From positions 64,001 to 128,000 of the IMG/VR virus record IMGVR_UViG_3300026320_000001: 64,000 nt of DNA; one strand, written 5' to 3'. The notes below the pieces were generated by a model. That model did not search any database, was not told where the DNA came from, and saw only the letters and a list, made by a program, of their open reading frames with translations. This stretch comes from a virus. A program made the translations under genes and the position numbers. How positions within the stretch are numbered: position 1 is the stretch's first letter; every line of letters starts with the position of its first letter. Shown piece after piece: positions 804 to 63,351 of this stretch.

Positions 804-821
804 ATAAAATCTTAGTTTCAT
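804..821. repeat. junction inverted repeat ATAAAA-N6-TTTYAT
   Basis: ttgATAAAA TCTTAG TTTCATaaa, overlapping the stop of ORF 570-815. Confidence 0.8.
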
Positions 822-1287
822 AAATAAAAGGAAAAATTAAAATGTATATTTGGAATGTTATCGTTGAAGAAAAATGGAATTATCATGCTATAGATGATGA
901 TGGTGAGACAGATTTGGAATATTATGTTGTTGCCGCAGAAGATTTTAATGAAGCATTTAATAAGGTTGTAAAAATCGCTCTTGATAATTCAAGATGGTGG
1001 AAAGATGAACATGATGAAGGCAATGGAAAAGGATTTATAAATAAACCTATTTCATTGGAATTGGTATCCATTGAAAGAGGTGATTGGTTAGATGGATAAT
1101 ATAACCCAAAAACAATTAGATGAAATTTTCAGAGACAATGATAAAATAATTACAGATGGTCTTGAAATTTTCGATTCAATGATGAAAAAACTTATCGTAG
1201 ATGTTTTTACGGGTGGAAATGAAGAACATCAAAAAAGATTAAAAATTATATTAGATAATTTTTTGGTTGATATAAATAACCGAATGG

Positions 1288-1305
1288 ATAGAATGAGGTT
1301 TTCAT
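1288..1305. repeat. junction inverted repeat (variant)
   Basis: ATAGAA TGAGGT TTTCAT at the end of ORF 1092-1307. Confidence 0.65.
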
Positions 1306-2127
1306 AAATGAGAATTGATATAGAAGATATAAATAAAATCACGCATATTAGAAAGTTATACAATCAAATTCCATTAGAAAAAATTATATTTTATAAGAAT
1401 GAAAAACCTATGGAAATTGATTCTCGTATAATTGAAGAATTTAAATTCACTGGATTAAATAATATTGACTTTATTACAACTGGTTATTATTTAAGAAAAT
1501 ATGGTGAAAACGAATCAAGTGAAGAAATTGATACCGGATTAGAAGAATTAAAAATTCAACATATTAGTTTTCCAACAACTGGTCTTATTTTAGAATTAAA
1601 TGAATATCAAGCTAAAAATTTATTGGCTTTATTACAACTAATTGGAACAGGGTTAATTATGGAAAAATCTGAACAATATAATTCAAATGTTATTAGTGCA
1701 AATAATGGTGATTGGATTGGTGAAATTCGTTGGCAACTTGAAGATTATATAAAAGAAGATGGTCAAACAAACTTTGGTAAAGAACTTCCTGATTGGGCGG
1801 CGCAAAGAGGCCAATGGATTACCAAAAAACAATGGAAAGAAAAATATGGATAATTTATCATATTATTCAATACCAACAATCAGAATAGAATCTGATGATG
1901 AAAATGAATTTTTTGGTCTACCAAGAAAATTAATTTGGAAAAATAAAAAATGGTTATATCATGTTCATTGTGATGGTTCTGTATTTCATGTTGTTTCTTA
2001 TTATTTAATTTGGGATGGAGTTAATAAAAAAGTTGCAATGCCTTGTTCTGAAAAAAATTGCATTATGAATGCTCCAGTAAATATTCAAATTGAAGCATGG
2101 AAACTTTGTCGTGACAATGGAACGTTG

Positions 2128-2145
2128 ATAAAATAGAATTTTTAT
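2128..2145. repeat. junction inverted repeat
   Basis: ttgATAAAA TAGAAT TTTTAT, contains the stop at 2136, RBS follows directly. Confidence 0.85.
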
Positions 2146-3124
2146 GGAGAAAAAATGGAAGATAAAACGAAAGTGATTGAAGGAATTTCTAAAGAAGAAG
2201 CAGAAAAGATATTGAAAGAATTTGACAACACTGTTTTAATGGATTTGGCAAATAAAGAAAATGTTGTCATTTATAATGGATTAAAATTTGAAATTAAATT
2301 TTTCAATCCTAGAAATGGTGAAATCAGAATGAGATTAATTAAAGAAAATCAAGTAAAGATTGGATAATAAATGATTATTGAATTTTATGGCGACCAAAAT
2401 TTAAAAGAACTTCATAAAAATGTTGTTTTTGTATTTAAAAGATTGACAGAAAATAGAAGATGTCCAAAAGATAAATGTTCGCTATGCGATAAATTCAATA
2501 AAATTAATTTTTCAAAATGGCATCCAGAACAATCTGGAAAATATAATGACACTTGGAATATTATCGAATTGATGGAACATTATGGCTATCATTCATATGA
2601 ATATGATACCGTTTTATATACATCTAAATTTATATATCAAGAAACAGTTGGTAAACCAGATGTTATTATAACTGGAGATGGGTTGAGTTTTAATCAAGCT
2701 GTTTGCAATATGTTTGTCAAATATGGAAGATATTTAAAGGTTTTGCCAGCATGAATAAAATTAGATTAAATTGGCATGGAGATACAAAAATAGAAATTGA
2801 TTGTCACTTCTTTTCTTTTGAACCCGGTCAAAATGATGAAGTAATTAAAGATAATATAAGGGTGAGATACTTTGGAGATGATGATGATTTTCAACATTTT
2901 TCTCCAACACTTAAGGATATTTCAATTATAATGCATACGATGGTAGGTCATGGTGTTACTTGGCAATTAGCTAATGAGCTATCTAAAAGATTTAAATTAA
3001 ATCCATATGAAGTTTCTGAAAATCTTAGTGAAATTTTTGAAGAATATTATAATATTTCCGAAGATGAATCAGACCAAAGATGGGAAAGCAAAGAAAATCC
3101 ATCATTATATGCACCAATGACTTA

Positions 3125-3142
3125 AGGAAACGTACATTTTAT
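3125..3142. repeat. junction inverted repeat (degenerate)
   Basis: AGGAAA CGTACA TTTTAT at the stop of the ORF ending 3125. Confidence 0.45.
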
Positions 3143-3340
3143 TTAAAAAATAAGAAAGAGAAATAATATGAATGGAAAGATAAAGTTAAAAAAAGGAGAT
3201 ACTATATTAGTATATGGTTCTTCTGTTGCAGTTGAATTAGAAGTTGATACAATTATATTGGTAACAGAGGATACCTTCTTATCATTTATAAAAAACTTAC
3301 CTAAAGACGCTGATTATAGAATTACATTACAATCTGATTA

Positions 3341-3358
3341 ATAAAATAAGTGTTTTAT
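3341..3358. repeat. junction inverted repeat
   Basis: ttaATAAAA TAAGTG TTTTAT between the stop at 3341 and the RBS of 3370. Confidence 0.85.
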
Positions 3359-3369
3359 GGAGAAAATAA

Positions 3370-3903
3370 ATGAGTGTTGTTGCAGTTAAAATTATTAATA
3401 ATGAAAAAAATATTGGATTTGAAATATCTAGTGATTCTATTATGACCAGAAATGCAACTCAATCTAAAAATAACACATCTGATTTTGTAAAACTTTATGA
3501 AATAAATGATATTGTTGTTGGAACTGCTGGATATGCAGAAGATTCTTCTTTAATGAAATTATTTATTGAAACAACAAAACCATCTAGTTCTACTGAAACA
3601 GGTTTACTCGAATTTATATCCAGATTTCAAGATTGGAAAAAAAAGAAAACTGATAATGGAAGCATAAATAGCACTTTTTTTATTGGGTATGAATATAAAA
3701 TTTTTTATATAAGTGGATGGCATATCCAACAAATAACAAAATATGATGCAATTGGTGCAGGACAAGATTTTGCATTGGCATCATTATATCTTGGACACAA
3801 TACTAAAGAAGCCGTAAAAACTGCAATTGAACTTTCTGTTTATTGTGAAGAACCCATAATAACAATAGAAAAATATATAACATTAGGAAAACAATATGTT
3901 TGA
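3370..3903 (+). CDS. Ntn-hydrolase (proteasome beta/HslV-like) peptidase
   Basis: N-terminal (M)SVVAV, SSDS, VVGTAG, AIGAGQDFALASL, EAVKTAIELSVYC match the beta-subunit pattern; Ser at the nucleophile position. Confidence 0.75.
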   Translation: MSVVAVKIINNEKNIGFEISSDSIMTRNATQSKNNTSDFVKLYEINDIVVGTAGYAEDSSLMKLFIETTKPSSSTETGLLEFISRFQDWKKKKTDNGSINSTFFIGYEYKIFYISGWHIQQITKYDAIGAGQDFALASLYLGHNTKEAVKTAIELSVYCEEPIITIEKYITLGKQYV

Positions 3904-4421
3904 AAATAATGAAAGAAAACAATTAACAGAAGAACATATGGAAAATCCAAAAGTAGGGGATAGGTTTTCTGAAATGTTGGCTTTTTGGGTTTATGTTTTA
4001 CATGTCAATAATGATTTAAAAACAATTATTACTTTATCTGCACACGCTCCTGCCGAACTTCCAAAAGACGGAAAAATTGAATATCAAACTTTTGATGAAT
4101 TTCGCACAAGATTTCATTATAGCGGAGGAGAAGATTATTGGGTATCTTATATAGATGGAAATAATGATGTTGAAGGTTGGTATTAATATTATGAACAATA
4201 TGTGGACAGCAAAATATTGGAATAAAAATCAATGGATAGATATTGAACTTATAAATATAAAATCTGGAATGACTATATATGTAGTTGAACCGGATGGAAA
4301 TGTTGTTTGGAATAATGTTTTTAATTCATCACGATTAAAAGTTACTAAAGATGCTTGTTATAATGAAGATGGAAATATAGAAATAGAATTTATTAAAGGA
4401 GAAGTTGAATTAAATGACTGA
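3896..4421 (+). other. two hypothetical genes (3896-4186, ~4191-4421)
   Basis: ORF track, coupled starts and stops. Confidence 0.6.
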
Positions 4422-4925: not shown

Positions 4926-5368
4926 CAAATATATTAAAAACAGGAGAATTATTATGGCAACCCTACAGATTGACCTTGAAATATCTATTGAATGTGAAAA
5001 ATGCGGGAATAAATCTAAACCAAAATTTAATGAATCTTCTGCGCGTATATGGGCAATTACAAATGGTTGGCATATAAATTATATTAACGATACTGCCATT
5101 TGTTCTTCATGTCGAACAAAAAATCTTTTAGGAATAAAAAATGGAAAAAACTAATTTTATAAATTTTTGTGGAATAGCTAATTTTGATGAGATAATTACA
5201 TCGCAATTTTTATTATATGTTTATTATAATAAATTAGAAAATAAAAATGAAATTGAATTATCTGAGTTTATTAAAAAAGAAAGAACTATTACTGAATGGC
5301 AATTTATTTGTGATGGATTTTTAGAATCTCTAACTATTGTTAAAAACGCTTGGGATATAAAATAATAA

Positions 5369-5386
5369 ATAAAATGTGCATTTCAT
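5369..5386. repeat. junction inverted repeat
   Basis: ATAAAA TGTGCA TTTCAT between the stop at 5365 and the RBS of 5399. Confidence 0.8.
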
Positions 5387-5811
5387 AATTGAGGAATAAT
5401 GGCAAAAAGAATTAATATTGATGGAAAATTTTATCGTAATCGCAGAGGGAAACTTGTTCAAATTCCTGATGAATGGCTTGGTAAAACTACTGACCGTCAA
5501 ACAATAAAAAAAAGAAATTCTATTTCTAGACGGACAAGAAAGAATAAAAATAAATCAACATAGGAAACAATAATGATAGGTATAGGTAAAGTAATTAAAT
5601 CTGTTGCTGGTGGATATGCATATTTTGAAGTTGAAAAAGATTATATAGAATATATAGATACTAAAAAAATAAAATTTCTAGTTCGTAAAATTGAAAGAAA
5701 AAATGAACATGATTTTGATATAGAAATGTTTCCGTATAAGTATGATAAGCCTGATTATCAAAACCCCGAATTTTTAACCCTATATTGTGATATAGCAATC
5801 ATAAGATATAA

Positions 5812-5829
5812 ATAAAATACAGATTTTAT
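5812..5829. repeat. junction inverted repeat
   Basis: ATAAAA TACAGA TTTTATcaa; its TAA is the stop of ORF 5573-5815. Confidence 0.85.
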
Positions 5830-6787
5830 CAAGGAAAATAAAATGACAATATTAAATCAAACTTACACTGGAATGCCTTGCCCACTTTCTATTCACTATC
5901 TTAAGGATACGATTAAAAACAGAGGTAACTCATCAATGATGATGCAAATATCTGTTTCAGCTTGGGAATTAGCAATAGTTTTGGACAGACTAGATTATCT
6001 TGAAAGATATGAAAAATATGTTCAAACAGCAATTGAAAAAGGTGTTCCTTATAAATGAAAATTAATATGATTAATAGCATAAATAAATATAATCAAGAGT
6101 TAAAAAATTTAAATTATCAAATAATTATTGCAACAAATGAAACTCAAATTTTTATAAATCTTATATCTGCTTATATTTATAAATCTTGGTGGCAACGAAT
6201 TCAATATTGGTTGAGATTAAAATGAAAGAAACCGTGTCATTATGAATGATTCACAAAAGTTATTATTAGATATTTCAAAAGACCCTGAAAAATCAGAAAG
6301 ATTTTTTAAGATTGTTGCGGCTGATAAATTAATTCGCAAAGGAAAATTATTGTTGATTGTTTGTTTATGTTTGTTTATTGGATTTATGTTTGGGAAAATA
6401 TTATGAAAATACAATATCATAATTGTGAAGAATTAAAAAAAGAAATTCATGGTTTGAAATATCTTGATGCATTACATGCAATAACAATATGGCATCATGA
6501 TGTTCAAAAATTTTGGATAATGTCTTTATATCAACACGCAGATATAATTATTAATTATTGTCCATTTTGTGGAGTTAAATTAAAATGAATTGTGATTATT
6601 GTAATAGTAGAATTATTGAAGAAGATGAAAATTGTTCTCATTGTGGTGCGCCAATAAAAGACTATTATTCTACAAAAGAATGGATTTCTAAATTAAATAT
6701 TTATAATAATCTAAAAGATTTTAAACTTGGAAATGAAATACATATATCTTCTCTTTCAAATTCAATAGAATATTTTGAAAAACATTC

Positions 6788-6805
6788 ATAAAATGAAAGA
6801 TTCAT
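6788..6805. repeat. junction inverted repeat (variant)
   Basis: ATAAAA TGAAAG ATTCAT; its TAA is the stop of ORF 6585-6791. Confidence 0.65.
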
Positions 6806-7511
6806 AAAGGAAAACATGATTATAGAGAAAAGAAAAAATCCATCATATCAAGTTGGAGATATAAGATTAAAAAGAGGATTTATTTTTTTAAAAACAATAA
6901 ACAATATAACAAAATTTTTATCTAATGAAATTTGGACTGAAAAATTATTAGATAAAAATATATGGGAATCCTTACAATGGGGATGGAGTATGTCGAATAT
7001 AGGTGAAAGAGTTTTTATAAACAATATTCAATTAATGCATACTAGAGGTTTGGGATTCAAAGAAGGTAAAAAAAATTTTATAGAAAATATTTTGATATAT
7101 GGAAGTGAAAATAGAATAAAATATGAAATTATAAATTATTTCTTTGAAAATACATATCCAAATAAAGAATATACAATTGAATCAAGAGAAGATAGAGCAG
7201 TTTTAGTGAAATTCACAAATAATCCATATGTTCAATCAATTATCTATGATACATATAATAATTTTTTAGAAGGTATTGGAATTGATAAAAAAATTATTAA
7301 TAAATATAAGTTAAAAAATTACAATGTTTTTCATAGCAAAGGAAAAAATGAAACCACTTAAATACATAAAAGAATTATCCAAAAAAACAATTGAATGGTA
7401 TAATATTTTAAAGATTTCTGAAACAGGAACAATTCCACCTAAAGAAGAATGGGCTAAACATTTCAATGTTTCCATTGGACTTTATGAACATGTTCAATTA
7501 GAAATGAATAA

Positions 7512-7815
7512 ATGAAAAATCCTAAAACGGTTTATTTTTGGTGGAGTGTTGGTCATGTCTATCAAGCAGAATTTGTTCGATGGGTTATTAAGAGAATGCA
7601 TAATGGCAGAGATGATACCAATAAATTAGGAGTTGCTGTTTTACTTGAATCTGATTGGTTATTTAATAATGTCAAAATATCTTATGGTTGCAAAAGAGGG
7701 CAATATATTCTTAGACCGACCATATACAGATTTATATCGTTCGTATAATAAAGCTTATAGTGGAATTGATAAAATAAGAAGACCAACTGTTGAACAAATA
7801 CGATTAATAAAATAA
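7512..7815 (+). pseudogene. hypothetical gene apparently frameshifted by a 4-bp duplication
   Basis: GACCGACC at 7714-7721; removing one GACC joins ORFs 7512-7748 and 7633-7815 in frame (...QYILRPYTDLY...). Confidence 0.5.
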
Positions 7816-7824
7816 ATCTTTTAT
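7807..7824. repeat. junction inverted repeat
   Basis: ttaATAAAA TAAATC TTTTATaaa, contains the stop at 7815. Confidence 0.85.
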
Positions 7825-7837
7825 AAAGGAATCTAGT

Positions 7838-11525: not shown

Positions 11526-11539
11526 ATGGGGAAAAATTG

Positions 11540-11557
11540 ATAAAATAGTTCTTTTAT
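11540..11557. repeat. junction inverted repeat
   Basis: ttgATAAAA TAGTTC TTTTATtaa, just downstream of the 11477 promoter. Confidence 0.85.
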
Positions 11558-11576
11558 TAATAGAAGGAAAAAATTA

Positions 11577-12059: not shown

Positions 12060-13709
12060 ATGATGATTAAGTTTTTGGCAAGTATTTTATTTGTAATTAG
12101 ATTTTTTAAAAAGAATAAAAAAGTATCACAATATTTAATAACAACACTTGTATTATTTTCTATATTTTATTTTTTCAATTCAGATATGGCTATCACAATG
12201 ATTTCCTTAATTCTGAGATTGGGATTTTCTGCATTATTATTAATATCTCAGTTTGCATTTTTATTTATGTTTATGGCTCGTTCAAAAACAATTACAATTA
12301 TTCCGGGAGATAAAAATCAATTAACATTGAATGATTATAAAGGCCAAGATATTCTTGTCGAAAATATGAGACAATGGATAAAAACGCTTCGAGGAGACAA
12401 AAAATTTCAAGAAATGGGCGGTGAACCACCAAGAGGATTATTGCTCGTTGGAAGAGCGGGAACTGGCAAGACTCAGTTGTTAAAGTGTTTAAGTGGTGAA
12501 GCAGGGATTGCAATGCACGCAATTGAAGGAAGTGGATTTAAGGCAATGTTTTGGGGAATTGATATTTTAAAGATGAATCAATTTGTTAACAAAGCAAGAA
12601 ATCTTGCATTAGAATATGGTAGTGCAATCTGTTATATTGATGAAATTGATGCTGTAGCTTCTTCTAGAGGGGGAGTTATGGGAGGACAAAATCAACCAGC
12701 CGGAATGATGGGCATAGGTGGAGGTTCTCTATCAACATTATTAACTCAAATGGATGGTCTTTCAGAAGAACGCGAATTTATTAAATGCCAAAATATTATT
12801 AGAAAATTGTTTGGTATGAAATCAATAAATGAAGGATATGTAATGTTTGTTGGTGCAACAAATAGACCTGATGTTCTTGACCCTGCAATTGTCAGAGCCG
12901 GAAGATTAGATAAAACAATTACTGTTGAACCACCAGACGCAAAAGGAAGAAAAGAAATATTTGAATATTACTTGAATAAAATCAAACATGATGATATAAA
13001 TGTTGATAGTGTTGTTGCATTTTCTCATGGAATAACTCCGGCAGAAATTGCAATGTCTGTTCAAAGAGACAGCGTTAGAAATGCAAGATTTGCAAATAGA
13101 AATTCTGTAACACAAGAAGATTTAGAGTGGGCATTAGTAGAAGAACGTGCTGGATTTTCAAATCCAATTGATAACATGCCAATAGAACAACAAAAACAAG
13201 TATGTATTCATGAAAGTGGACATGCTGTTGCATTATATCATCTTAGAAAAGATAGATTAATTAGTTTTGTTTCTACCGTTAGAAGAGGTTCAGCTTTGGG
13301 AATGGTTATTCCTGTTGATACAGAAACTAATTATGCAATTCCTTTAAAAAGCTTTATTGCAGATATTAGAATTTCTATGGCTGGAGATAAGGCAACAGAA
13401 GTTCTTCTCGGAGAACGTTGGACTGGTGCTAGGGGAGATATTGAACATATTAAAAATTATGTTTCTTACTTGGTTCATCATGGAGTTTTTGGTCAAATAC
13501 CATTTGGAAATAGTGAAAGTATTATGAATAATGAACAAGTACAAAAATGGATAATCTCACAATGGGAAGCAACACAAGAATTCTGTGAAAATCATATTGA
13601 TGAAATTAGAGTTTTATCAGACGTTCTAATGGAAAAGAAAGAACTTCCCGGTAGAGAAGCAATTAAAATTATTGAAAGTGTTATAGGAGAAAGAAAAAAT
13701 GAATCGTGA
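12060..13709 (+). CDS. FtsH-like membrane AAA+ Zn metalloprotease
   Basis: N-terminal TM helices, GLLLVGRAGTGKT (Walker A), YIDEIDA (Walker B), ATNRPDVLDPAIVRAGRLD (SRH), HESGH, GARGD. Confidence 0.9.
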   Translation: MMIKFLASILFVIRFFKKNKKVSQYLITTLVLFSIFYFFNSDMAITMISLILRLGFSALLLISQFAFLFMFMARSKTITIIPGDKNQLTLNDYKGQDILVENMRQWIKTLRGDKKFQEMGGEPPRGLLLVGRAGTGKTQLLKCLSGEAGIAMHAIEGSGFKAMFWGIDILKMNQFVNKARNLALEYGSAICYIDEIDAVASSRGGVMGGQNQPAGMMGIGGGSLSTLLTQMDGLSEEREFIKCQNIIRKLFGMKSINEGYVMFVGATNRPDVLDPAIVRAGRLDKTITVEPPDAKGRKEIFEYYLNKIKHDDINVDSVVAFSHGITPAEIAMSVQRDSVRNARFANRNSVTQEDLEWALVEERAGFSNPIDNMPIEQQKQVCIHESGHAVALYHLRKDRLISFVSTVRRGSALGMVIPVDTETNYAIPLKSFIADIRISMAGDKATEVLLGERWTGARGDIEHIKNYVSYLVHHGVFGQIPFGNSESIMNNEQVQKWIISQWEATQEFCENHIDEIRVLSDVLMEKKELPGREAIKIIESVIGERKNES

Positions 13710-16486: not shown

Positions 16487-16717
16487 ATGTATCTTGATTG
16501 GATTCTAAGTATATTAACAATTGCAATGAATATAATGTTGGGAAAGAAAATTAAATGGGGGTGGATTATCATGTTTATTTTAAGTTTATTGTGGATATAT
16601 TATGCATTATCTTTAAATCCTCCACAATATGGTTTACTTCCAGCAATCATTGCAAACCTAATTATTTCTGTTCCTAGTGCAATCAAATGGTTTAAGGAAG
16701 ATAAAGCGAATCAATAA
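16487..16717 (+). CDS. three-TM PnuC/SemiSWEET-like membrane protein
   Basis: DWILSILTI...KKIKWGW...LWIYYAL...YGLL pattern of short phage PnuC-like proteins. Confidence 0.5.
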   Translation: MYLDWILSILTIAMNIMLGKKIKWGWIIMFILSLLWIYYALSLNPPQYGLLPAIIANLIISVPSAIKWFKEDKANQ

Positions 16718-16731
16718 AATTTCACTTTTAT
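16714..16731. repeat. junction inverted repeat
   Basis: ATAAAA TTTCAC TTTTATcaa; its TAA is the stop at 16717. Confidence 0.85.
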
Positions 16732-17272
16732 CAATATAGAGGCAATAATGTTTACTAAAAGAAAATCAGAATTAGAATTTGGAATTAGTGCTGGAAAAAA
16801 TGTTTATAATGCAGAATTAAAAAGTAACGGTGTTAAAAAAATAATATTACAATGGATTGAGGGAAGAGAATCTATTTATATTAAATTTGCTGATATTTTT
16901 GGTTATAAAGAAATGTGGGGAGTGTTTGGTATTGATGAGTTTATTGTAATGGCAGAAGAATTAAAAAAATTAAAAGAAGAAAATAAAGGAAAATAATTAT
17001 GGATGAATTTATTGCTGGAATAATTGTCGGATTACTTGTTGCATATCTTATTTGCATTGTCATAGTGTGGAGTTAATTATGAATAACGAAGATGATTTAA
17101 TAGTATCAAATAATGAAAACAAAGAAAATAAGATAAGAGTATTTCCACAAATTAAAAAAATGATTCGTAGAGAATTATTGAATGAATTGATAGTTGTATT
17201 TTCAGATATAAATACTGATTGGTCAACCAATGACTTGATTAATTTCTTAACTTCTTATGATGAGAAATAAAA

Positions 17273-18338: not shown

Positions 18339-19022
18339 ATGATTTCATATTATGGGTCTAAAAGCAAAGTAATTAAATATTATCCAAAACCAATACATGA
18401 TTTGATAATTGAACCATTTGCAGGAAGTGCCAGATATGCATTAGAATATTTTGAAAAAGATGTAATACTTATTGAAAAATATGAGACACTTTATAAAATA
18501 TGGAAATATCTTCAACAATGTTCACCTAAAGATATTCTTGGTCTTCCTAAAATGAAATCTGGTGAAACAACAGATGATTATAATTTTGATTGTATTGAAG
18601 CAAAATGGCTTATGGGATTCATGGTTCAACAGGGAGTTAATGCACCTCGAAAGACTGTTTCAAAAGTTGGTAATTTTGGCAAATGTATAGAGCGTGATAA
18701 AATGCGAATTTCATCAAGTCTTTATAAAATCAAGCATTGGGATATAAGACTCGGTGATTATAGAGATTTGAAAAATAAAAAGGCCACATGGTTTATTGAC
18801 CCTCCTTATCAATATGGGGGAGAATATTATCATTCAAGTGTTAATAATTCTCATTTAGATTTCAAAGAATTGTCAAAATGGTGCAAAAAAAGAAGGGGGC
18901 AAACGATAGTCTGTGAGAATACAAAAGCTAATTGGATGAATTTTAAACCATTAAAAGAAATGCATGGAAGTAAAAATACAACCACTGAAGCAATATGGTA
19001 TAAGGAAAATAATGGAATTTAA
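18339..19022 (+). CDS. Dam-like (D12 class) N6-adenine DNA methyltransferase
   Basis: YYGSKSK, EPFAGSA, FIDPPY. Confidence 0.85.
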   Translation: MISYYGSKSKVIKYYPKPIHDLIIEPFAGSARYALEYFEKDVILIEKYETLYKIWKYLQQCSPKDILGLPKMKSGETTDDYNFDCIEAKWLMGFMVQQGVNAPRKTVSKVGNFGKCIERDKMRISSSLYKIKHWDIRLGDYRDLKNKKATWFIDPPYQYGGEYYHSSVNNSHLDFKELSKWCKKRRGQTIVCENTKANWMNFKPLKEMHGSKNTTTEAIWYKENNGI

Positions 19023-22953: not shown

Positions 22954-22961
22954 TATAATTG

Positions 22962-22979
22962 ATAGAATCAAAATTTTAT
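22962..22979. repeat. junction inverted repeat (variant)
   Basis: ttgATAGAA TCAAAA TTTTATaaa just after the nrdJ stop. Confidence 0.7.
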
Positions 22980-22986
22980 AAATAGT

Positions 22987-38724: not shown

Positions 38725-38875
38725 GTAATTCTCCTATTTTTTGCATTTTTTAATTATCATCTATTTTTTGTACTTTTTATGACTATATACAATAGTCATA
38801 AAAATAAACAAAAATACTAAAGATAAAAAATCATAAAAGTTATTTCACAGGTCAAATTGACCCGTAAATTCATTG

Positions 38876-38893
38876 ATGAAATGACTGTTTTAT
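38876..38893. repeat. junction inverted repeat with extended arms
   Basis: ATTGATGAAA TGACTG TTTTATCAAT (10-6-10), 11 bp past the stop of ORF 38905-39534. Confidence 0.85.
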
Positions 38894-38904
38894 CAATAGT
38901 ATTA

Positions 38905-51357: not shown

Positions 51358-51368
51358 AAATCCTCCTT

Positions 51369-52190: not shown

Positions 52191-52192
52191 GA

Positions 52193-52516
52193 CTATATCT
52201 TTGTAAAATCAGTTCCAACATATATTCCCCCATCGTTTTCAACTGTAACTTTTTTTGGTTTATAAGGGTCACTTGTTGAAACAACAACTTCTTGAACATA
52301 GATAATATTTGTATATCCAAGAAATCTTGGAACATAATAATTATTTGGTAATTTAATAAAATCTATTGTATAATTTATATTATTAATTTTTTCTATATTT
52401 GTAGTTACAACGTCAGAACTAAAAGTATAACCAATTGGCAATTCTGTTTGAGTATTTGTTTCAAACATACTTGCTGTCAATCTTGGTTTTACGGGATTTA
52501 TAATTTTATAATTCAT
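52193..52516 (-). CDS. small protein, possibly SH3-like cell-wall-binding
   Basis: Beta-rich, follows the lysin; C-terminal KKVTVEND. Confidence 0.4.
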   Translation of the reverse strand: MNYKIINPVKPRLTASMFETNTQTELPIGYTFSSDVVTTNIEKINNINYTIDFIKLPNNYYVPRFLGYTNIIYVQEVVVSTSDPYKPKKVTVENDGGIYVGTDFTKI

Positions 52517-52527
52517 ATAGTTCCTTT

Positions 52528-54015: not shown

Positions 54016-54028
54016 AATTCTCCTATCT

Positions 54029-55747
54029 TTATATCAAATATCCAAATACATCAATATCAACTGTACAATCAGATGTTGTTCCAGTAGCTATTGATATTTC
54101 AAAACTATCATTTGAAATTAAATTTTGAAATTTTGTATTATTTGTATCTAATATAATAAAATCTGTTTCTGGAGTTGTCAAAGAAGATAAATCTACAGAT
54201 TGTTTCCAATTTGTAAAATTATATTCAGTTCCACCAGCCATAGAAGCAGAAGGATTTCTAATAATAACATGTGTTATATATCCGGTTTTTCCAGAAGGAA
54301 CAATATATAAACTATTATTTCCGACTGTTTTCATATCAACACCTTCAGATGTTGATAATTTTGTCATTGCTATTGTATTTAAATTTGCCATATTTATCCT
54401 CCTAAAAGTTAAAAACTATTTGTCCATCATAAGTTACGACATCTCCATCATAAATTACAGCGGAGGATAAATTAAAATTAAAATCAAATGGTTGTCCAGA
54501 ACTAATCAAAACATTATATTGATTTTCATTTAAAGTAATAATTACATCTAAATTATCAGTAGGAGTAATAATTGGATTTATTGTCATATTAAACTCCTAG
54601 AATATTAAAATTTCCAGCCAAAATAGTTCTTGTATAAACTGTTATTGGAGTAATTTCTTGTTTTGGTGTATTCCAAACAAATTCCCATTTATATTTTTCT
54701 GATGCAATAGGAAGAGATTCAATAGAATCTTTTGAAATAAAAAAATGTAATTTACCAATAGATAAATCGGTTTCAGTTATAACAATAGGTATTATTGTCA
54801 AAGCTGTTCCAGAAGGAATAATGTTTGCTGTAAAATCATAATTTGTTAAATCAATACCAAAATCTGCATCAAAAGATAAATCATCTCCTAATTGCATTGT
54901 TAAATCAAGTTTTCCAGAATTTTGTTTTAAGTCAGTCACATTATTTTGCCTCCTTTATTTTATTGATAAAAGACATGTTTCATTAACCTTTTGCTATTCC
55001 ATGAACAAAACCAGTTCCAGCAGTTAAAGCAACCGTACCTTTTATTTGCACTTTATAGTATCTGTAAGGTGCTGGTGAAGCAACATAACTACTTGTTGCT
55101 AATGCAGAAACAGTAATTGGTGAACCAACAATAATAGCATCACTAAAATCAGTATCATTTGCCGCTACAACTTGCCAAGTAATAGAATTTGCAATATCTG
55201 TATTTTGAATAGTATAAGCCATAACAGAATAATTTAATGCATCTATTCCTGAACCAACAACATCAGCATAACTATTTGTTGATAATTGAGCAACAGGAGA
55301 AACTTCTAATGATGCATTGCTAAAACTTCCGCTAACTGAAACTACTTGATTACTAGGTAAAACAACTGGAAAACTTGCGGCGGATGTTTTTTGACCCAAT
55401 GATGTTGGCATTCTTTCAAAAGCCCATTTCACCAAACCTCTTAATTTTCCACTTATTGTACCGCTTGTATCGGTAATAACAGCAGAATCGGCAACCGCCC
55501 CCTGAGTCGCATCTCCTCCGTTTGCAATTTCCACTTGTCCTATTGTTATAGTTCCGGTACTAACAGAAACAGGAAGACCATAAACAGACAGAGTTAAATC
55601 CTCTGCAATTATTCTCCAAGTTCCATCGTCTATCATGAATATTGTTCCACCAATTATACTTGCTCCAACGATTGTGTCATTATCAATATCCGATGTTTCA
55701 GCTATATATGTGGGAACATTATTCTTTGAAATTAATTTTAATGTCAT
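54029..55747 (-). other. four probable virion/accessory structural genes (54029-54391, 54402-54587, 54589-54939, 54983-55747)
   Basis: ORF track, GGAGG RBS before 54391, 54939 and 55747, beta-rich composition. Confidence 0.55.
54966..54983. repeat. junction inverted repeat
   Basis: ttgATAAAA GACATG TTTCATtaa, touching the stop of ORF 54983-55747. Confidence 0.8.
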
Positions 55748-55760
55748 ATTTTATTGCCTC

Positions 55761-57410
55761 CTATTTTCCAGCGTTTCCGCCATCTTCTCTTGTTTGAGAA
55801 CCGCTATCAGTTAATTTAGATGTTGGTTTTGTTGGACGACCTTTTGTTTTAGTTGTTGAACTATCTCCTCCACTATCGGCTGGCATTTGCGCCCCCATAA
55901 TAATTGGAGTTAATCCATCTACAAAATTATTTATTTTAGTCATCGCCAATTGACGTTCAAAATGATGAGGTAATTGACCCAATGCGGCCGCTATTTTTTG
56001 CATATTTACTATACCATATGACATCATATCTTTTTGCATATTTAATCTTTCTTCTCTATTGGTAAAGAAATTTGTACCTTCAAGAAAAAATTTAAATTTT
56101 GTTTTTGTTTTTTTATTGATTTGATATTCCAAGAAATCAGAAAAATAAGGATAAATATGTTCCATCAAATATTCATCAACGTTTATTGATAATTGAGATT
56201 CAACAGCATTATTTTTATCTAAAGTAAATATTAATCTAGAATTTACACCAGATGAAGCAGTAGTTGTTTTCAAAAATTCTTCATAAAATGGAGTTCCTAA
56301 TGGAAAATCAATTGCTTTCATATCTTCAAGAGGAGCCGCACCTACTTTAATAGCTTCTGATAAGCCCGATTTTAATAAAGCAAGAAACTTTCCTAGCAAA
56401 TCAGGACTAACAGCAACACTATCTTTAACAACTCCACCTTTAACATCTTTATTTAGCATTGGGATTTTTCCTAAAACTAATTTACTTGCACTTGCAATAT
56501 AAGCATTTGTTTGTAGTTTACGAATAACTGGTTGTAAAACTACATCTGAAAACATAGGAGCAAGAAAAGGAATTCTTGTTGCTAATTCAGGATTAAATTT
56601 GAAACACCAAAAACCATCTTTAGGACTTGTTTGAGTCCATAAAACCCATGAACCAGTTCTTCTATCAACTGGATTTGATGGATTATACTTTTTATAAGAT
56701 TCATTTTCTCCATAAACTCTATTATAAAGAGATTTAAAAATTCTAGGAAACATATTTATATCAACACCGGGTTGAATAAAATATAATATATCAAAATCAA
56801 AAAGCAATCCATAATCCCATCTACCAGTAATTAAACAATATTGATGATTTAATTCTTGAAGCGTATATCTATCACCTTCATCTCTCAATACCGAGAAAAA
56901 TGCTTCTTGTCTAAGCATTTGTCTAATTGCTGTTCCAAATTCTTTTTTAATATCAAATTTATCTAAGAAATTGTTTACTATTTTGACATCTTTTTTATAT
57001 TGTTTTAAAAATTTTGCATCTTCAAAATCAACATCATCTCCAATAGGAACATAAGTTAAATCAAAACTTAACATTCCAGAAAGATAATATAAAACTCTTT
57101 TATATACCATTGATGTTAATTCAAAAAATTCAGAATATCCAACTAATTGTTCTTCATGTTCTTTTGGATTTAATAATGCCGCATCTATTTTATCGGCTGT
57201 TGCCATTTGTGGTGACATTGAAACAGCTTGCAATTGTTGATTAACTAATTGAGGGGTATAAACATTTCCATATAAACTTGATGCAAATTGTAAAACATCC
57301 CAAACTTCTTTTTCTGACAATAAAATATCATCATTCTTAACTTTTATAATATCTGTTGATTTTTTTGATGATGATTTTCTAGTTATTTTTTTTGATTTTG
57401 TTCTTGCCAT
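55761..57410 (-). CDS. portal protein
   Basis: 549 aa directly after TerL; C-terminal GRP tail. Confidence 0.8.
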   Translation of the reverse strand: MARTKSKKITRKSSSKKSTDIIKVKNDDILLSEKEVWDVLQFASSLYGNVYTPQLVNQQLQAVSMSPQMATADKIDAALLNPKEHEEQLVGYSEFFELTSMVYKRVLYYLSGMLSFDLTYVPIGDDVDFEDAKFLKQYKKDVKIVNNFLDKFDIKKEFGTAIRQMLRQEAFFSVLRDEGDRYTLQELNHQYCLITGRWDYGLLFDFDILYFIQPGVDINMFPRIFKSLYNRVYGENESYKKYNPSNPVDRRTGSWVLWTQTSPKDGFWCFKFNPELATRIPFLAPMFSDVVLQPVIRKLQTNAYIASASKLVLGKIPMLNKDVKGGVVKDSVAVSPDLLGKFLALLKSGLSEAIKVGAAPLEDMKAIDFPLGTPFYEEFLKTTTASSGVNSRLIFTLDKNNAVESQLSINVDEYLMEHIYPYFSDFLEYQINKKTKTKFKFFLEGTNFFTNREERLNMQKDMMSYGIVNMQKIAAALGQLPHHFERQLAMTKINNFVDGLTPIIMGAQMPADSGGDSSTTKTKGRPTKPTSKLTDSGSQTREDGGNAGK

Positions 57411-57424
57411 TTTTCTCCTCTCTG

Positions 57425-59233
57425 TTAAACTACCATAATACTATTGAGAAATTCTTCATCAGTATTTCCGGTTTCTTTTAATAAATCGTTATCTAAAAAT
57501 CCAACGAAATAATTTGCATATGAAACACAAGTATAACGGTCTTTTCTTGCTCCATCAGGTTCTTTTAATTTAATGTATCCTGCTTCTAATTTCATAGAAA
57601 GATTGACACACTCATTAATAAACAAACTTGTTTGAATATATGGATGAAGAAAGAATGCTTTTATAGTTATATCATCATTATCTATTATTTTTTTATAAGT
57701 TTTCATTAAATATCCATCTGCAACTGTTTCTTCAACTAAAAATGAAAACATTTTTTTCTTTAATTTATCTCTAAATGCCACAGCAATTTCAGAATTTAAT
57801 TTTGCAGATGCAGAAATTGGAAATATATTTTCTTTAGCATTAATAGCCAAAGTACGTCTTGATAATTCTTCATAAACATCATCAGAAATTCCAATATGTT
57901 TCATAACTGTCATTGCTTCGTATTCAATATTTCTTTCATCATCTTTTGTTATATTGCCTAATTGGTCAAAAATACTTATACCAGCGTTTGCTATATCAAG
58001 CACAATATAATCAGCATTAAAATCAAAATAAATTTGTTTCAATCTCAATGTTTGAAAAACAGTATTTTTTCCAGAATGACTTTCCATATAATATAATTCT
58101 CTGTGATACCCAACACTCGTTGGTAAAAGTCTAATGCAAGAAATAATTGTTAAGTCATTACTTCTTCCCGCACGAGTAGCAACATCACAAGATATTAAAC
58201 GGATTTCTCCTTCAATTCTTTGGATGTCAAATGGATTTTCTTTCTTATTATATTCATCTTTTCTTTGAGGATAAAATGCTTTCTTTATATCTCTATTTTT
58301 TGCAAACATTGACATTTTAAAATAAGCATCTCCAGCTTCACCAGCAGGTATATTAAGATATTCTAATTGAAATGGAATTTCTTCCATTGTTTCTTTATCA
58401 TTTTCAACCTGTTTTACTGTTTTTATTCTGTGATGAATAGCAGTTAAATAATCTGTGACAAAAAAACCAGAATCTTTTCCAGATAACATTTGTTTTATTG
58501 TAATCAATGCTTCTTTATACCACCATCCAGAAACAAAGTGTGCAGATGTAATGTGCATTTCTTTTGCTTCTTCGGGAGGAATAATATGATATTCAATATT
58601 TTGATTATATGGTGTTGGTCTAACATAAGCAAATGGTTTGATGATACTATCTAAAATATCCTTATCTACCAATCTACTTTCTTCTACTATAATAAATGTT
58701 GCTCTGTGACCCCTCGCACTTTCTTTACTTGCCACAACTACAATATTACTTCCATTATGAAATATTACTTCATGTTTATTTTGTCCAGATGTAATACTTA
58801 AAATTTCTCTTGCTATATTTGGATAATTATTATTTAAACTTTGTATTTTTTCGCCTATAATAATACCAGCTTGTGCCATAGTGGAAGAAACAATAACAAC
58901 TGTGCTTCCGGGATATAGTACACAACGAACTATCGCATAAAGTCCAATTAACCAACTTTTTCCAATACTTCTTGATGCAACAGTAAAAAATTTATCTTTT
59001 ATTCCCATTGCCCATATCCAGACAATTTGAAATGGATATAATTTTACACCAAAATAATGTTCTACAAAACGATGAGTATTGAGTCTATAAAAAGTAACCC
59101 AAGATTTTAATCTATCTTTTCTTTCTTGTGTTAATTCTTTTTCTTTTTTCATAACTCTTGGTTTTTGAAATAAGTTTTTACTTCTTGTATTTTTAAAATA
59201 TTCTTGAGAATAATTTTTTATTTTTCCCACCAT
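57425..59233 (-). CDS. terL: terminase large subunit
   Basis: LYPFQ, ASRSIGKS, RGHRA, IIVEE, ISCDVA, ND.T, VLD, RKDRY. Confidence 0.92.
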   Translation of the reverse strand: MVGKIKNYSQEYFKNTRSKNLFQKPRVMKKEKELTQERKDRLKSWVTFYRLNTHRFVEHYFGVKLYPFQIVWIWAMGIKDKFFTVASRSIGKSWLIGLYAIVRCVLYPGSTVVIVSSTMAQAGIIIGEKIQSLNNNYPNIAREILSITSGQNKHEVIFHNGSNIVVVASKESARGHRATFIIVEESRLVDKDILDSIIKPFAYVRPTPYNQNIEYHIIPPEEAKEMHITSAHFVSGWWYKEALITIKQMLSGKDSGFFVTDYLTAIHHRIKTVKQVENDKETMEEIPFQLEYLNIPAGEAGDAYFKMSMFAKNRDIKKAFYPQRKDEYNKKENPFDIQRIEGEIRLISCDVATRAGRSNDLTIISCIRLLPTSVGYHRELYYMESHSGKNTVFQTLRLKQIYFDFNADYIVLDIANAGISIFDQLGNITKDDERNIEYEAMTVMKHIGISDDVYEELSRRTLAINAKENIFPISASAKLNSEIAVAFRDKLKKKMFSFLVEETVADGYLMKTYKKIIDNDDITIKAFFLHPYIQTSLFINECVNLSMKLEAGYIKLKEPDGARKDRYTCVSYANYFVGFLDNDLLKETGNTDEEFLNSIMVV

Positions 59234-60248: not shown

Positions 60249-60256
60249 CAATATAG

Positions 60257-60328
60257 AGCTACCAGCAGAAATTGAATCCACAAGACCTAATTACAAGTTA
60301 GGCATTTTACCAGTTAAATTATGGTAGC
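60257..60328 (-). tRNA. tRNA-Thr(TGT)
   Basis: GCTACCA/TGGTAGC acceptor, CCTAA-CTTGTAA-TTAGG, TTCAATT loop. Confidence 0.85.
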
Positions 60329-60339
60329 AAAAGAAAAAA

Positions 60340-60963
60340 TTATTTTTTTCTATTAGTTCTTCCATTTCCTTTATTTTTTGCTTTAAAAGTTGGAAGAAGA
60401 GCATCACAATTATTGCAAACATATCTAAGATTATTTGGAAAATTATTATTATGATTTCCGTCTATATGGTCAACAACAACGGGAATTTCAACATCATTCC
60501 AATTTTCTAATTCGCAAATTGAACATTTTTTATCAATATTTATTTTTCTAAAAAATCTTCTTGCTTCTTCGTCGTTCATTTCTCCAGCATTATATCTAGG
60601 TAAATTTTTTAAAAAACTATCTTTTTGATTTTTTTCAGCTTGACATTTTGTATTACAATATTTTCTATCACTTCTTCCATTTATTTTTTTACCACAATTT
60701 ATACAAAAAGAATCTTTTCTTCTTTGAATATAAATTTTTATGTTTTTATTAGAATAACTTGCTCCACAACTTTGAGAACAATAAGTATTAACTCTTTTTT
60801 CATAATCAATTGGTTTATTGCATTCTAAACATAATTTTGGATTATTTTCGTATTTATTTTTTGCTTTTAATCCATTTTCAATTGTTAAATTTCTTCCAAT
60901 TTTTAATTTATCATTTGCTCTTTTTCTGCTTGCTTTTGATTTATATCTTCCTGAACTTTTCAT
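60340..60963 (-). CDS. HNH endonuclease with zinc fingers
   Basis: CSIC...VDHIDGNHNNN...NLRYVCNNCD; YCSQSC and YCNTKC. Confidence 0.88.
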   Translation of the reverse strand: MKSSGRYKSKASRKRANDKLKIGRNLTIENGLKAKNKYENNPKLCLECNKPIDYEKRVNTYCSQSCGASYSNKNIKIYIQRRKDSFCINCGKKINGRSDRKYCNTKCQAEKNQKDSFLKNLPRYNAGEMNDEEARRFFRKINIDKKCSICELENWNDVEIPVVVDHIDGNHNNNFPNNLRYVCNNCDALLPTFKAKNKGNGRTNRKK

Positions 60964-60978
60964 TTTTTATTTTCCCAT

Positions 60979-61060
60979 AATCCCACAAATATAATTAAAA
61001 AGAAAGAAGCCGGGGATTCGGCTTTTCGATTGGTTCATGACTTCCAATCTATCTATCTTT
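60979..61060 (-). ncRNA. putative cis-regulatory three-way-junction RNA (copy 2)
   Basis: P1 AAAGATAGA/TCTTTCTTT, TAG, P2 ATTGG/CCAAT, CGAAAAG, P3 GCCG-AATCCC-CGGC; loop complementary to downstream GGGATT. Confidence 0.55.
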
Positions 61061-61063
61061 TAG

Positions 61064-61134
61064 TTGCGCGAGCAAGAATCGAACTTGCGGCAAGAGGTTA
61101 TGGGCCTCCTGTGTTACCACTACACCATCTCGCA
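61064..61134 (-). tRNA. tRNA with CAT anticodon (Met, or Ile2 if lysidine-modified)
   Basis: Cloverleaf; GGAGG-CCCATAA-CCTCT; GCAAG-TTCGATT-CTTGC. Confidence 0.85.
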
Positions 61135-61144
61135 TCGTAAAAAC

Positions 61145-61173
61145 ATGTTATCATATAAACATGATTTTGTCAA
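61145..61173 (-). promoter_or_regulatory. SigA-type promoter for tRNA(CAT)-HNH-tRNA-Thr
   Basis: TTGACA-17 bp-TAACAT with extended TG. Confidence 0.65.
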
Positions 61174-61290
61174 GAGGTTAAAAAGGACTCTATAAAGAGT
61201 CCTCTCTAACAAATATATTTAATTTCCCCCATATTTATAATAAATAGAAACAATAAAAAATAAATTCTTAATAAATATAGAAAAATTTAT

Positions 61291-62199
61291 TTAATTTTTT
61301 AATAAATTTTCTTTTTTAAATTTAGACAAAATATTTTTTCCATATCTATGTAAAGAACCGCATTTATCACATCTCAAAGATTCATACATTCCTTGACCTG
61401 AAGGATATTTTCCTTCATTTGTAAATTCTGTTCCCAAACAATTAGGACATTGTTTTGTTTCCAAATTATTGTGTCTGGCAAGATTTGGGTGATTTGGAAT
61501 GAATCCCCTAAGTTTGTAATACAAAGTTTCTGTAGCTATAACATCACCCACATTATAAGAAAGCATCGTATTCAGGGACTTGTCATCCCCATTAGAACAG
61601 GCTATCCATAAAGGAAAACCATCATTATCAATTTTATTTCTAATACCTAATTTTTTATTTATTTCAGTTAATTTATTTGAAGTAAATCTGAAATTATTTC
61701 TAGCTACTTGTAAAGTATCTATGGTCAAATATTTTACTGGTTTTGCATACATCAAAAAATAATTATTTAAAGTTTTTCCATCATAATTAAGAAAATTATG
61801 TCCAATTATTATATCACATGAATTAACAAATTCAAATGCAGATAAAGAAATTCTTTCTGGATTTCTATTTATGGCTTCTTCTGATGTCAGAATATCTGAA
61901 TATATTTTATTTGAATTCAAATATTTTCCAGCCCAACTAAGAAGACATAAATCTTCTATCATTTGTTCTCCACCTAGATATTGTTCTCTCATTCCCCATG
62001 AATAAAATTTAGCCGGTAAATTTTCTATATCCATCACGCCAATTTTAAAAGTATCAGTTTTTGCATTTACTTCAAAAAATTCTACAGGAATGGAATCCCA
62101 TGTACCACAATCTTGACATTCTATTCTTTTTTTTGTTCTGGATTTATTAAATCCTCTTTGTTGAATATTTTCTGAACTACATTCTTTGCAGGTAATCAA
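61291..62199 (-). CDS. RNase H-fold 3'-5' exonuclease (DEDD/RNase_H_2-like) with terminal zinc ribbons
   Basis: MDIEN, IGHN...YD, IDTL, YNVGDV. Confidence 0.8.
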   Translation of the reverse strand: MITCKECSSENIQQRGFNKSRTKKRIECQDCGTWDSIPVEFFEVNAKTDTFKIGVMDIENLPAKFYSWGMREQYLGGEQMIEDLCLLSWAGKYLNSNKIYSDILTSEEAINRNPERISLSAFEFVNSCDIIIGHNFLNYDGKTLNNYFLMYAKPVKYLTIDTLQVARNNFRFTSNKLTEINKKLGIRNKIDNDGFPLWIACSNGDDKSLNTMLSYNVGDVIATETLYYKLRGFIPNHPNLARHNNLETKQCPNCLGTEFTNEGKYPSGQGMYESLRCDKCGSLHRYGKNILSKFKKENLLKN

Positions 62200-62265
62200 T
62201 TTTATCTCCTAATTTGGATATGTTATAAAAATACATATCCCCCTAATTACATTTCCCACATTTAG

Positions 62266-62337
62266 CTGGCACGACAGGACTTGAACCCATATGACGATAT
62301 TAACAGTATCGCATCTTGCCTATTAGATGACACGCCA
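62266..62337 (-). tRNA. tRNA-Asn(GTT)
   Basis: TGGCGTG/CGTGCCA, CGATA-CTGTTAA-TATCG, TTCAAGT. Confidence 0.85.
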
Positions 62338-62354
62338 AAATTTATTTATTACAG

Positions 62355-62429
62355 TCAGTGTAGCAGGATTTGAACCTGCGAACCTCGCCGCCCCAAACGG
62401 CTTGCTCTACCGAACTGAGCTACACACTG
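62355..62429 (-). tRNA. tRNA-Pro(TGG)
   Basis: CAGTGTG/TACACTG, TAGCTCAG..GGTAGAGC, GCCG-TTTGGGG-CGGC, GCAGG-TTCAAAT-CCTGC. Confidence 0.92.
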
Positions 62430-62452
62430 ATATTTATTTTTTTTCTTACAAG

Positions 62453-62524
62453 TCCAGTTATAGGAACTCGAATCCTAATTTGCAGGGTGAAAACCTGCCG
62501 TCATGACCTTTAGACCATAACCGG
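62453..62524 (-). tRNA. tRNA-Glu(TTC)
   Basis: CCGGTTA/TAACTGG, GCAGG-TTTTCAC-CCTGC, TAGGA-TTCGAGT-TCCTA. Confidence 0.88.
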
Positions 62525-62528
62525 ATAG

Positions 62529-62599
62529 AGCAGGTAAAGGGAATCAAACCCTTATCATCAGTTTGGAAAACTGAGGCACAATCAATATACCATACCCGC
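62529..62599 (-). tRNA. tRNA-Gly(TCC), degenerate
   Basis: GCGGGTA/TACCTGC, TCAGT-TTTCCAA-ACTGA; T-loop is TTTGATT and the D-loop lacks GG. Confidence 0.7.
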
Positions 62600-62636
62600 A
62601 TTTAGGTCTATTTCTAGACCCATTTATATTCTCTAA

Positions 62637-62665
62637 ATTCTACCACATTATGTTATTTTTGTCAA
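62637..62665 (-). promoter_or_regulatory. SigA-type promoter for the four-tRNA cluster
   Basis: TTGACA-17 bp-TAGAAT with extended TG. Confidence 0.82.
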
Positions 62666-62671
62666 GGGATA

Positions 62672-62971
62672 TTATTTATCAAGTTTATCTTGTTGATGAA
62701 ATAATTGTCCCAAATAGTAAACACCAAAAATTGAACTAATAATCATAAATATAGGTGTTGCAATTGTCATAAAAGCATCAGTTGCATATGTCAATATCAA
62801 ATATGCTCCAACACCAATTGCGGCACTTCCCAAGAACGATAAAAATTGTTTTTGGGCTGAATTATATTTTGTTTGAAACCAGTTCCATCTTTCGACTAAA
62901 AAAGATACAACGGCCACACTTCCACCACCGAAAGCAAGAAATTGCAAAAATCCAATTAAAGTTATATTCAT
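62672..62971 (-). CDS. holin-like three-TM protein
   Basis: 99 aa, three hydrophobic helices, charged C-terminus, GGAGG RBS. Confidence 0.55.
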   Translation of the reverse strand: MNITLIGFLQFLAFGGGSVAVVSFLVERWNWFQTKYNSAQKQFLSFLGSAAIGVGAYLILTYATDAFMTIATPIFMIISSIFGVYYLGQLFHQQDKLDK

Positions 62972-62997
62972 TTTTCCTCCTATTTTTTAAAACATTA

Positions 62998-63312
62998 TTA
63001 TGAAACCATTATTGTATAATTTCTCGGTACAAGACCACCAGCATTTCCCGATGTATAAGTCCATGTTATATCAGGATAAATTTTTACATGCTCCCATTTT
63101 TGCCAATCATAAGGATATGTTGGATATGTTGGATATGTTGGATATGTTGGATAAACATATGGTCTATCAACATAAATAGTTTCTTTTTCTGGTTGAATGC
63201 CCAACAGATTAGTCAAAGCTTCTTGTAATTCTATTGCTTGTTCAACCGTCAATTCAGCTTCTTTATTTCCTATCTTTATTGTTATTTTAGATATTTGTAC
63301 ATCTTTATTCAT
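62998..63312 (-). CDS. hypothetical protein with YPT repeats
   Basis: 9-bp repeat GGATATGTT x3-4 at 63113-63152. Confidence 0.65.
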   Translation of the reverse strand: MNKDVQISKITIKIGNKEAELTVEQAIELQEALTNLLGIQPEKETIYVDRPYVYPTYPTYPTYPTYPYDWQKWEHVKIYPDITWTYTSGNAGGLVPRNYTIMVS

Positions 63313-63333
63313 TTTTAAATCTCCTTAATATTA

Positions 63334-63351
63334 ATAAAAAACCAATTTTAT
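63334..63351. repeat. junction inverted repeat
   Basis: ttaATAAAA AACCAA TTTTATcaa, touching the stop of ORF 63351-63629. Confidence 0.85.

Follow-up and report, generated by a model that had tools for sequence, protein, structure and literature searches.

Strand exchange by the tyrosine recombinases Cre, Flp and Xer depends on homology within the core of the recombination site. Heterospecific lox and FRT sites of Cre and Flp have the same arms and different centres, so that orthogonal pairs exchange a cassette without deleting it. In Acinetobacter baumannii, Rep_3 plasmids carry xrs/pdif sites with a 6-bp centre that flank variable gene modules; host XerC/XerD is reported to act on these sites, the modules are not excised, replicons recombine, and the site sequence sets compatibility (PMC11705084). 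In the T4-type phages RB49 and phi1, PeSLs have been described, junction elements composed of a promoter and a stem-loop that are repeated in hyperplastic regions, recombine mutually, form mini-circles and mediate modular shuffling between phages (PMC2839356). Integrons and attC clusters have been reported in phages (PMC9892861). Here we compare these systems with a dispersed inverted repeat in 64,000 nucleotides of viral DNA (positions 64,001 to 128,000 of IMG/VR record IMGVR_UViG_3300026320_000001; this whole stretch is the window, to which positions refer unless another sequence is named). Its copies are probably heterospecific tyrosine-recombinase crossover sites for exchange between phage genomes, a reading built on comparative sequence analysis.

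It has long been asked how unrelated genes come to be swapped between phages exactly at gene boundaries, with no homology on either side. The usual account of such swaps is illegitimate recombination followed by selection.

The junction motif and its distribution

The core of the repeat is the 18-bp sequence ATRAAA-N6-TTTYAT, and the window contains 17 copies of it (Table 1). An earlier note on this DNA had listed 15 positions, each of which is the start of this core or of a close variant, and the seven copies that it called exact (ATAAAA-N6-TTTTAT at 2128, 3341, 5812, 7807, 11540, 16714 and 63334) are so. The fixed spacing also withstood its control: exact arms at other spacer lengths from 2 to 11 occur in 0-2 copies, and only N6 is enriched. 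For the longer 9-6-9 consensus with at most one mismatch, the window has 11 sites with N6 and 0-1 with any other spacer. The window corresponds to bases 12752-76751 of a phage contig, C4, which has 32 such sites, and none is present in ten host contigs (3.2 Mb; linked to the phage by co-assembly only). A position-weight model yields about 48-51 sites on C4. Information is concentrated in ATRAAA and TTTYAT, the outer bases are weaker, the four central bases carry almost none, and the conserved stretch is limited to about 24 bp.

Most sites follow a stop codon and precede the next ribosome-binding site (RBS). Of 43 exact sites, eight fall deep in open reading frame (ORF) calls, the background being 78% (P ~1e-16), and about three of these eight resemble ORF-calling errors. 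The statement that every copy lies at a gene junction is right for most and nevertheless overstated, because two strong copies at 13600 and 18697 sit within genes and had been missed. About five intragenic copies exist on C4, the other three being at C4 9128, 121575 and 130104. They are apparently lineage-specific gains, since they were not found in the homologous genes checked; their use as domain-swap points was rejected for the same lack of conservation. Protein ends of the LIK or LIKS type are real for ORFs 570-815, 1846-2136 and 7633-7815. The 15 listed copies all have T or C as their first spacer base. Over the whole contig this does not hold (of 51 sites, 31 have T, 9 C, 6 A and 5 G), and the preference for T/C at spacer position 1 has its mirror image in one for A/G at position 6.

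The location between stop and RBS in a genome of 28.5% GC would suit RNA hairpins at junctions, acting in processing, translational coupling or termination, or simply chance AT-rich patterns. The enrichment, however, is specific to the 6-bp spacer, no Rfam match or U-tract accompanies the sites, and when the arms are compared on the transcribed strand, A.C mismatches (76) are more frequent than G.U pairs (44). Recognition is therefore on DNA, and the two arms are independent half-sites (ATRAAA) recognised in double-stranded form. We consider an RNA or chance origin close to negligible.

C4 is a large SPbeta-related siphophage of 147,646 bp, in an assembly whose large contigs have about 42% GC. 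Among its genes are those for DNA polymerase III alpha, ribonucleotide reductase, terminase, portal and tape measure, together with tRNA genes, and its relatives carry Yom/Yon-type structural genes. The contig ends overlap inside a 36-bp tandem repeat, and the genome is probably complete.

The motif is not confined to this phage. A two-site pattern scan of IMG/VR gave at least 118 stretches, and among the matches listed, 19 IMG/VR records have 9-84 exact copies as compared to 0-2 for a reversed control. Isolates carry it as well: SPbeta (14 copies), phi3Ts (16), Tsamsa (21), pW2 (19), FADO (30), PJN02 (28), Geobacillus E3 (24), BcoS-136 (14), a Staphylococcus SPbeta-like phage (10) and Mammaliicoccus phi116 (26). 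Junction copies are present on contigs with homologues of either of the two C4 tyrosine recombinases described below. Homologues of the segment 3370-3903 occur in other gene contexts without the site. In literature searches, for which most subscription papers were out of reach, the motif and the function of the SPbeta recombinase YomM were nowhere described.

Spacers and module swaps in related phages

Spacers of the same genome tend to differ from one another. On C4, 4 spacer pairs are at a Hamming distance of one or less, as opposed to 18.1 expected (0/2000 shuffles). In a pool of nine sequences, which includes some kin genomes, identical pairs number 0 vs 7.4 expected (P 0.0005) and near-identical pairs 64 vs 116. 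Palindromic spacers are absent (0/307 vs 7.1 expected; P 0.0015).

Between related phages, the same spacers recur in the same order while the flanking DNA changes. The pair G001/G002 has 17 common spacers, 17/17 collinear and on the same strand, and at 12 of them neither 60-bp flank is homologous (chance mean 3.6). G003/G004 has 13, all collinear, 11 of which have neither flank homologous (chance 1.1), and G005/G006 has 40, again 40/40 collinear; by chance, means of 1-4 would be expected. Common spacers are also found in FADO/PJN02 (24), SPbeta/phi3Ts (10) and Tsamsa/pW2 (9). C4 and the fetched phages have no more spacers in common than expected by chance, and the single spacer matches of C4 with L008 and L009 are not significant.

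This conserved order bears on the proposal that the array is integron-like, with cassettes excised as circles, reinserted at a primary site and reordered. Genes are bounded by sites, stop codons fall in the left arm, most modules are promoterless, and the recombinase at 35382-36386 has a weak PF13495 match, below the cut-off. Against this stand the collinearity of all three pairs and the absence of any attC-length hairpin, conservation being limited to about 24 bp. Both genome arms and the structural module contain sites, and the recombinase gene is part of the tail module. The two sites that flank a module always differ in spacer, and excision by a homology-dependent recombinase would thereby be blocked. 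Contigs from four soil runs covering C4:4600-24599 represent a near-identical phage and contain no joints at sites, a weak test that is no evidence either way because contigs drop rare variants. The integron-like part of the earlier proposal did not hold, and we judge it very unlikely.

Ends of homology blocks in related phages cluster 9-10 bp to either side of the site centre, at the edges of the core. Of 164 gene junctions with a site, 89 are breakpoints, as compared with 137 of the 590 that lack one (odds ratio 3.9, from genome pairs that are not independent). Since site and non-site gene junctions are compared, any overall preference of breaks for intergenic positions is controlled. SPbeta and phi3Ts share perfectly identical tracts of at least 600 bp, 7/18 ends of which are at sites vs 0.4 expected. 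The tracts at 39882-58116, 113663-115066 and 123203-128097 of SPbeta (AF020713) are perfectly identical to phi3Ts over up to 18 kb. Perfect identity, with several tracts bounded by sites, suggests recent exchange between these two phages.

Laboratory recombinants of SPbeta and phi3Ts provide two junctions at sites. Fifteen published junctions lie in homology, and one (N1), at chromosome position 2170033, was classed as 'non-homologous' (10.1101/2020.05.06.055103, Suppl. Table 1). With chromosome and phage coordinates calibrated on junctions 3, 5 and 10 (offset 2286447), N1 corresponds exactly to SPbeta 116414, the first base of a site with centre TATTCC; this placement uses the table coordinates. 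The same 18-mer is present at phi3Ts 107396, where the common run is exactly 18 bp and the flanks are unrelated. At junction 7, which spans 30 bp, SPbeta (69423) and phi3Ts (62422) both have a variant site whose centre is TGCATA. Ordinary homologous recombination clearly acts too. Mapping of single-nucleotide polymorphisms in Hyb1-3 and PP526179 places most crossovers within unresolvable identical tracts of 1.4-18 kb that contain sites; one resolves, to a 39-bp patch in Hyb3 that has no site.

Spacer-matched sites thus mark module swaps in related phages as well as two laboratory junctions, in agreement with the crossover-site branch of the earlier note. Fixed arms, an asymmetric centre of constant length, uniqueness within a genome and identity between genomes at swap points are most simply explained by homology-dependent exchange in a tyrosine-recombinase core. 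A recombinase dimer would bind each site, and strand exchange would need identical 6-bp centres. Two sites of one genome could then not recombine, and neither deletion nor inversion would follow. Same-address sites of two co-resident genomes, brought together by co-infection or by an incoming phage meeting a prophage, would recombine to give a hybrid or co-integrate, and a second crossover at another common address would swap the intervening genes as in engineered cassette exchange. A site placed across stop codon and RBS would keep both genes and the operon intact.

Candidate enzymes and competing readings

The most likely enzyme would be the phage-encoded YomM-type recombinase at 35382-36386. 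The gene had been described as intact, and its product does possess R166, K212, H284, R287, H311 and Y320. The family has 646 homologues, SPbeta YomM among them, and its genes precede the one for the tape measure. In a phylogenetic tree, the YomM-type proteins of all site-rich phages included form one clade (support 100/99), whereas early-region recombinases form no single clade. Of 19 site-rich IMG/VR records, 18 contain a member of the YomM clade. In the remaining one, the tail module has a complete recombinase of divergent sequence, encoded about 5 kb upstream of the tape-measure gene; as the records were chosen by motif and are all kin, this co-occurrence indicates compatibility, not causation. 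A YomM-type gene is found in 10/10 site-rich isolate genomes checked. In G007, a complete record with 46 sites, it is the only tyrosine recombinase detected with Pfam. C4 has a second tyrosine recombinase, in the early region, and both have a complete R-K-H-R-H-Y set. The second gene has its own sigma70-type promoter and adjoins a DUF932 gene; its product is distantly like SPbeta YopP, and its five homologues found are all in phage-like contigs, most of them with the motif. If the exchange is site-specific, there is a good chance that the YomM-type protein is the enzyme. Directly upstream of its gene in the window is a GIY-YIG/HNH-like homing endonuclease gene (36376-37020, minus strand), and G023 also has an endonuclease-like gene upstream of its recombinase.

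Taken further, large siphophages of the SPbeta-like group and its relatives may possess a natural, genome-wide form of cassette exchange, composed of one conserved YomM-type recombinase and tens of orthogonal, heritable addresses. This wider claim is tentative, and so is its component that the 6-bp centres define exchange groups within which accessory genes are swapped slot by slot without flanking homology. If true, SPbeta would have a programmed, address-based route of exchange that is directly testable with existing strains. A conserved orphan recombinase would gain a candidate function, and a published 'non-homologous' junction would be explained. The sites would also offer a way to locate accessory gene slots, for example those for counter-defence, and the system could yield a recombinase that comes with a large natural set of orthogonal sites.

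Several observations weigh against the crossover-site reading. Only about a quarter of homology-block ends are at sites (101/386), identical-tract ends at sites are absent for Goe11, SPR, L4 and FADO/PJN02, and the borders of the phi3T/phi3Ts 's' fragment are not at sites. The published phi3Ts coordinate for N1 (107382) falls 14 bp short of the site, and junction 15 of Hyb3 is a 39-bp patch without a site. Isolated microhomologies of at least 17 bp between SPbeta and phi3Ts are sites in 4/12 cases, for which reason N1 and junction 7 alone cannot separate site-specific from microhomology-driven exchange. Swapping at the sites of C4 itself is argued from relatives, because searches of IMG/VR with either recombinase and of 80 host-related genomes returned no close relative. 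Lactococcus phages 949 and phiL47 have a 45%-identical YomM-type gene and no site enrichment; a de novo search of phage 949 for a variant site returned promoter-derived dyads only. SPbeta-type YomM has HxxK in place of HxxR, the second catalytic Arg being replaced by Lys, a change seen in SPbeta (yomM 40301-41302), Goe11 and E3.

The palindrome could instead have a different role, in which a phage protein binds it for nucleoid organisation, as a transcription roadblock, or in packaging or replication. Because it is conserved at junctions, its 18-24 bp could then serve as microhomology for annealing recombination, carried out by Sak4 and an exonuclease of the phage or by host RecA, as with the T4-type PeSLs. 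This explanation is kept alive because C4 encodes an AAA_24 (Sak4-like) ATPase and a PD-(D/E)XK nuclease. It would accommodate the site-less 39-bp patch, the one-third share of sites among isolated microhomologies and the retention of YomM by 949-type phages lacking sites, and spacer uniqueness would be selected under it too. However, it needs a second, unknown protein, and it does not explain a fixed, asymmetric 6-bp centre flanked by two conserved arms across Bacillus, Staphylococcus and uncultured hosts. Breakpoints favour sites over other junctions and over short common stretches such as RBS regions, and annealing recombination generally requires more identity than 18 bp of AT-rich DNA. 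We regard this explanation as unlikely, though it deserves attention. The AAA_24 protein (L002:3460-4383) and the nuclease (L002:6865-7671) flank a primase-helicase, and the group is likely a recombination module.

A further proposal was a dispersed operator network for a repressor like MrpR, which binds the SPBRE element of SPbeta, with no role in recombination. The site is symmetric and double-stranded, many copies are just 5' of an RBS, and three are within 60 bp of one of the many canonical sigma70-type promoters on C4. This number is near a rough chance estimate of two, however, and no -35 signal is found upstream of C4 sites; the left arm as an extended -10 box was rejected for the same reason. 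Ten MrpR-bound SPbeta promoters have been named (PMC10516654), and five of them (aimR, yonT, yonP, yonX and yopM) are at least 5.7 kb from any exact SPbeta copy. A tblastn search with YopR (E 1e-3) found no MrpR homologue on C4. For these two reasons the motif is not SPBRE. SroF/MrpR binds a 24-bp operator as a monomer (10.1101/2025.11.27.690993). An operator needs no constraint on its spacer and leaves unexplained why unique, never-palindromic spacers are kept when both flanks are replaced. The spacer statistics and the shared collinear spacers have already largely ruled this proposal out, and we rate it as improbable.

The features are collected in Table 1. A possible group I intron lacking an ORF, at 49821-50752, had no Rfam match at the gathering threshold. 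Other genes of C4 include six tRNA genes (Thr, Met, Asn, Pro, Glu and Gly) at 60256-62599 on the minus strand, a homologue of the YonO-like single-subunit RNA polymerase at L003:4301-5950 (minus strand; C4:80300-81949; tblastn E 6e-23), and a phage-encoded protein with WGR and PARP catalytic domains at L002:11112-12308.

Table 1. Motif copies and tyrosine-recombinase genes, in window coordinates unless another sequence is named.
Feature	Position	Strand	Spacer	Remarks
Site	801..824		TCTTAG	Overlaps 3' end of ORF 570-815 (ends LIKS)
Variant site	1285..1308		TGAGGT	Left arm ATAGAA; junction 1307/1308
Exact site	2125..2148		TAGAAT	Gives stop of ORF ending 2136; right arm enters next RBS
Degenerate site	3122..3145		CGTACA	Lowest score of the 15 listed (12.8)
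Exact site	3338..3361		TAAGTG	
Site	5366..5389		TGTGCA	
Exact site	5809..5832		TACAGA	
Variant site	6785..6808		TGAAAG	
Exact site	7804..7827		TAAATC	
Exact site	11537..11560		TAGTTC	3' of DNA polymerase III alpha gene; within 60 bp of sigma70-type promoter
Intragenic site	13597..13620		TTAGAG	Within FtsH-like gene 12060-13709
Exact site	16711..16734		TTTCAC	
Intragenic site	18694..18717		TGCGAA	Within 18339-19022; not conserved in homologous gene
Variant site	22959..22982		TCAAAA	Where two transcription arms converge; adjoins terminator-like hairpin
YomM-type tyrosine recombinase, 334 aa	35382..36386	-		Directly upstream of tape-measure gene; candidate enzyme
Site	38873..38896		CAGTCA	Tail module; spacer in transcription direction
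Site	54963..54986		CATGTC	Downstream of portal/head genes; spacer in transcription direction
Exact site	63331..63354		TTGGTT	Spacer in transcription direction
Second intact tyrosine recombinase, 282 aa	L005:7752-8600 = C4:123751-124599			Outside window; early region

Comparison with known systems

The crossover-site reading shares features with each of the systems described above. Integrons resemble it in having promoterless genes bounded by recombination sites, with the stop codon often within the site; they differ in that the phage sites have no attC hairpin, no attI/Pc lies beside the recombinase, and the array is not reordered. SPBRE/MrpR (SroF, YopR) is similar as a dispersed element of the same phage family with recombinase-fold proteins nearby. 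It has another sequence and other positions, lies in promoters, and coexists with the present motif in SPbeta. PeSLs are likewise junction elements for modular shuffling between phages. In contrast to PeSLs, the phage sites lack a promoter and a terminator, and their unique centres would avoid intragenomic exchange; C4 sites do not have the sigma70 promoter and terminator stem-loop that mark each PeSL.

The heterospecific lox and FRT sites are the engineered counterpart, whereas the phage sites are natural, have arms of 6-9 bp compared to 13, provide tens of addresses, and have an enzyme that is a candidate. The xrs/pdif sites are alike in having many core-type sites with a 6-bp centre that flank variable modules, and they would be alike in exchange between replicons. 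They differ in three respects. The phage sites have symmetric ATRAAA arms and not distinct XerC/XerD arms. The phage motif has no copy in the host contigs, where the host dif itself was not located, and it occurs in phages of many unrelated hosts. The phage system comprises 10-80 addresses genome-wide in conserved order, with a candidate enzyme that is phage-encoded. Co-integrates were not observed, and the comparative swap pattern fits exchange of the xrs/pdif type. In this comparison, the phage sites would work like xrs/pdif modules without being a member of that system.

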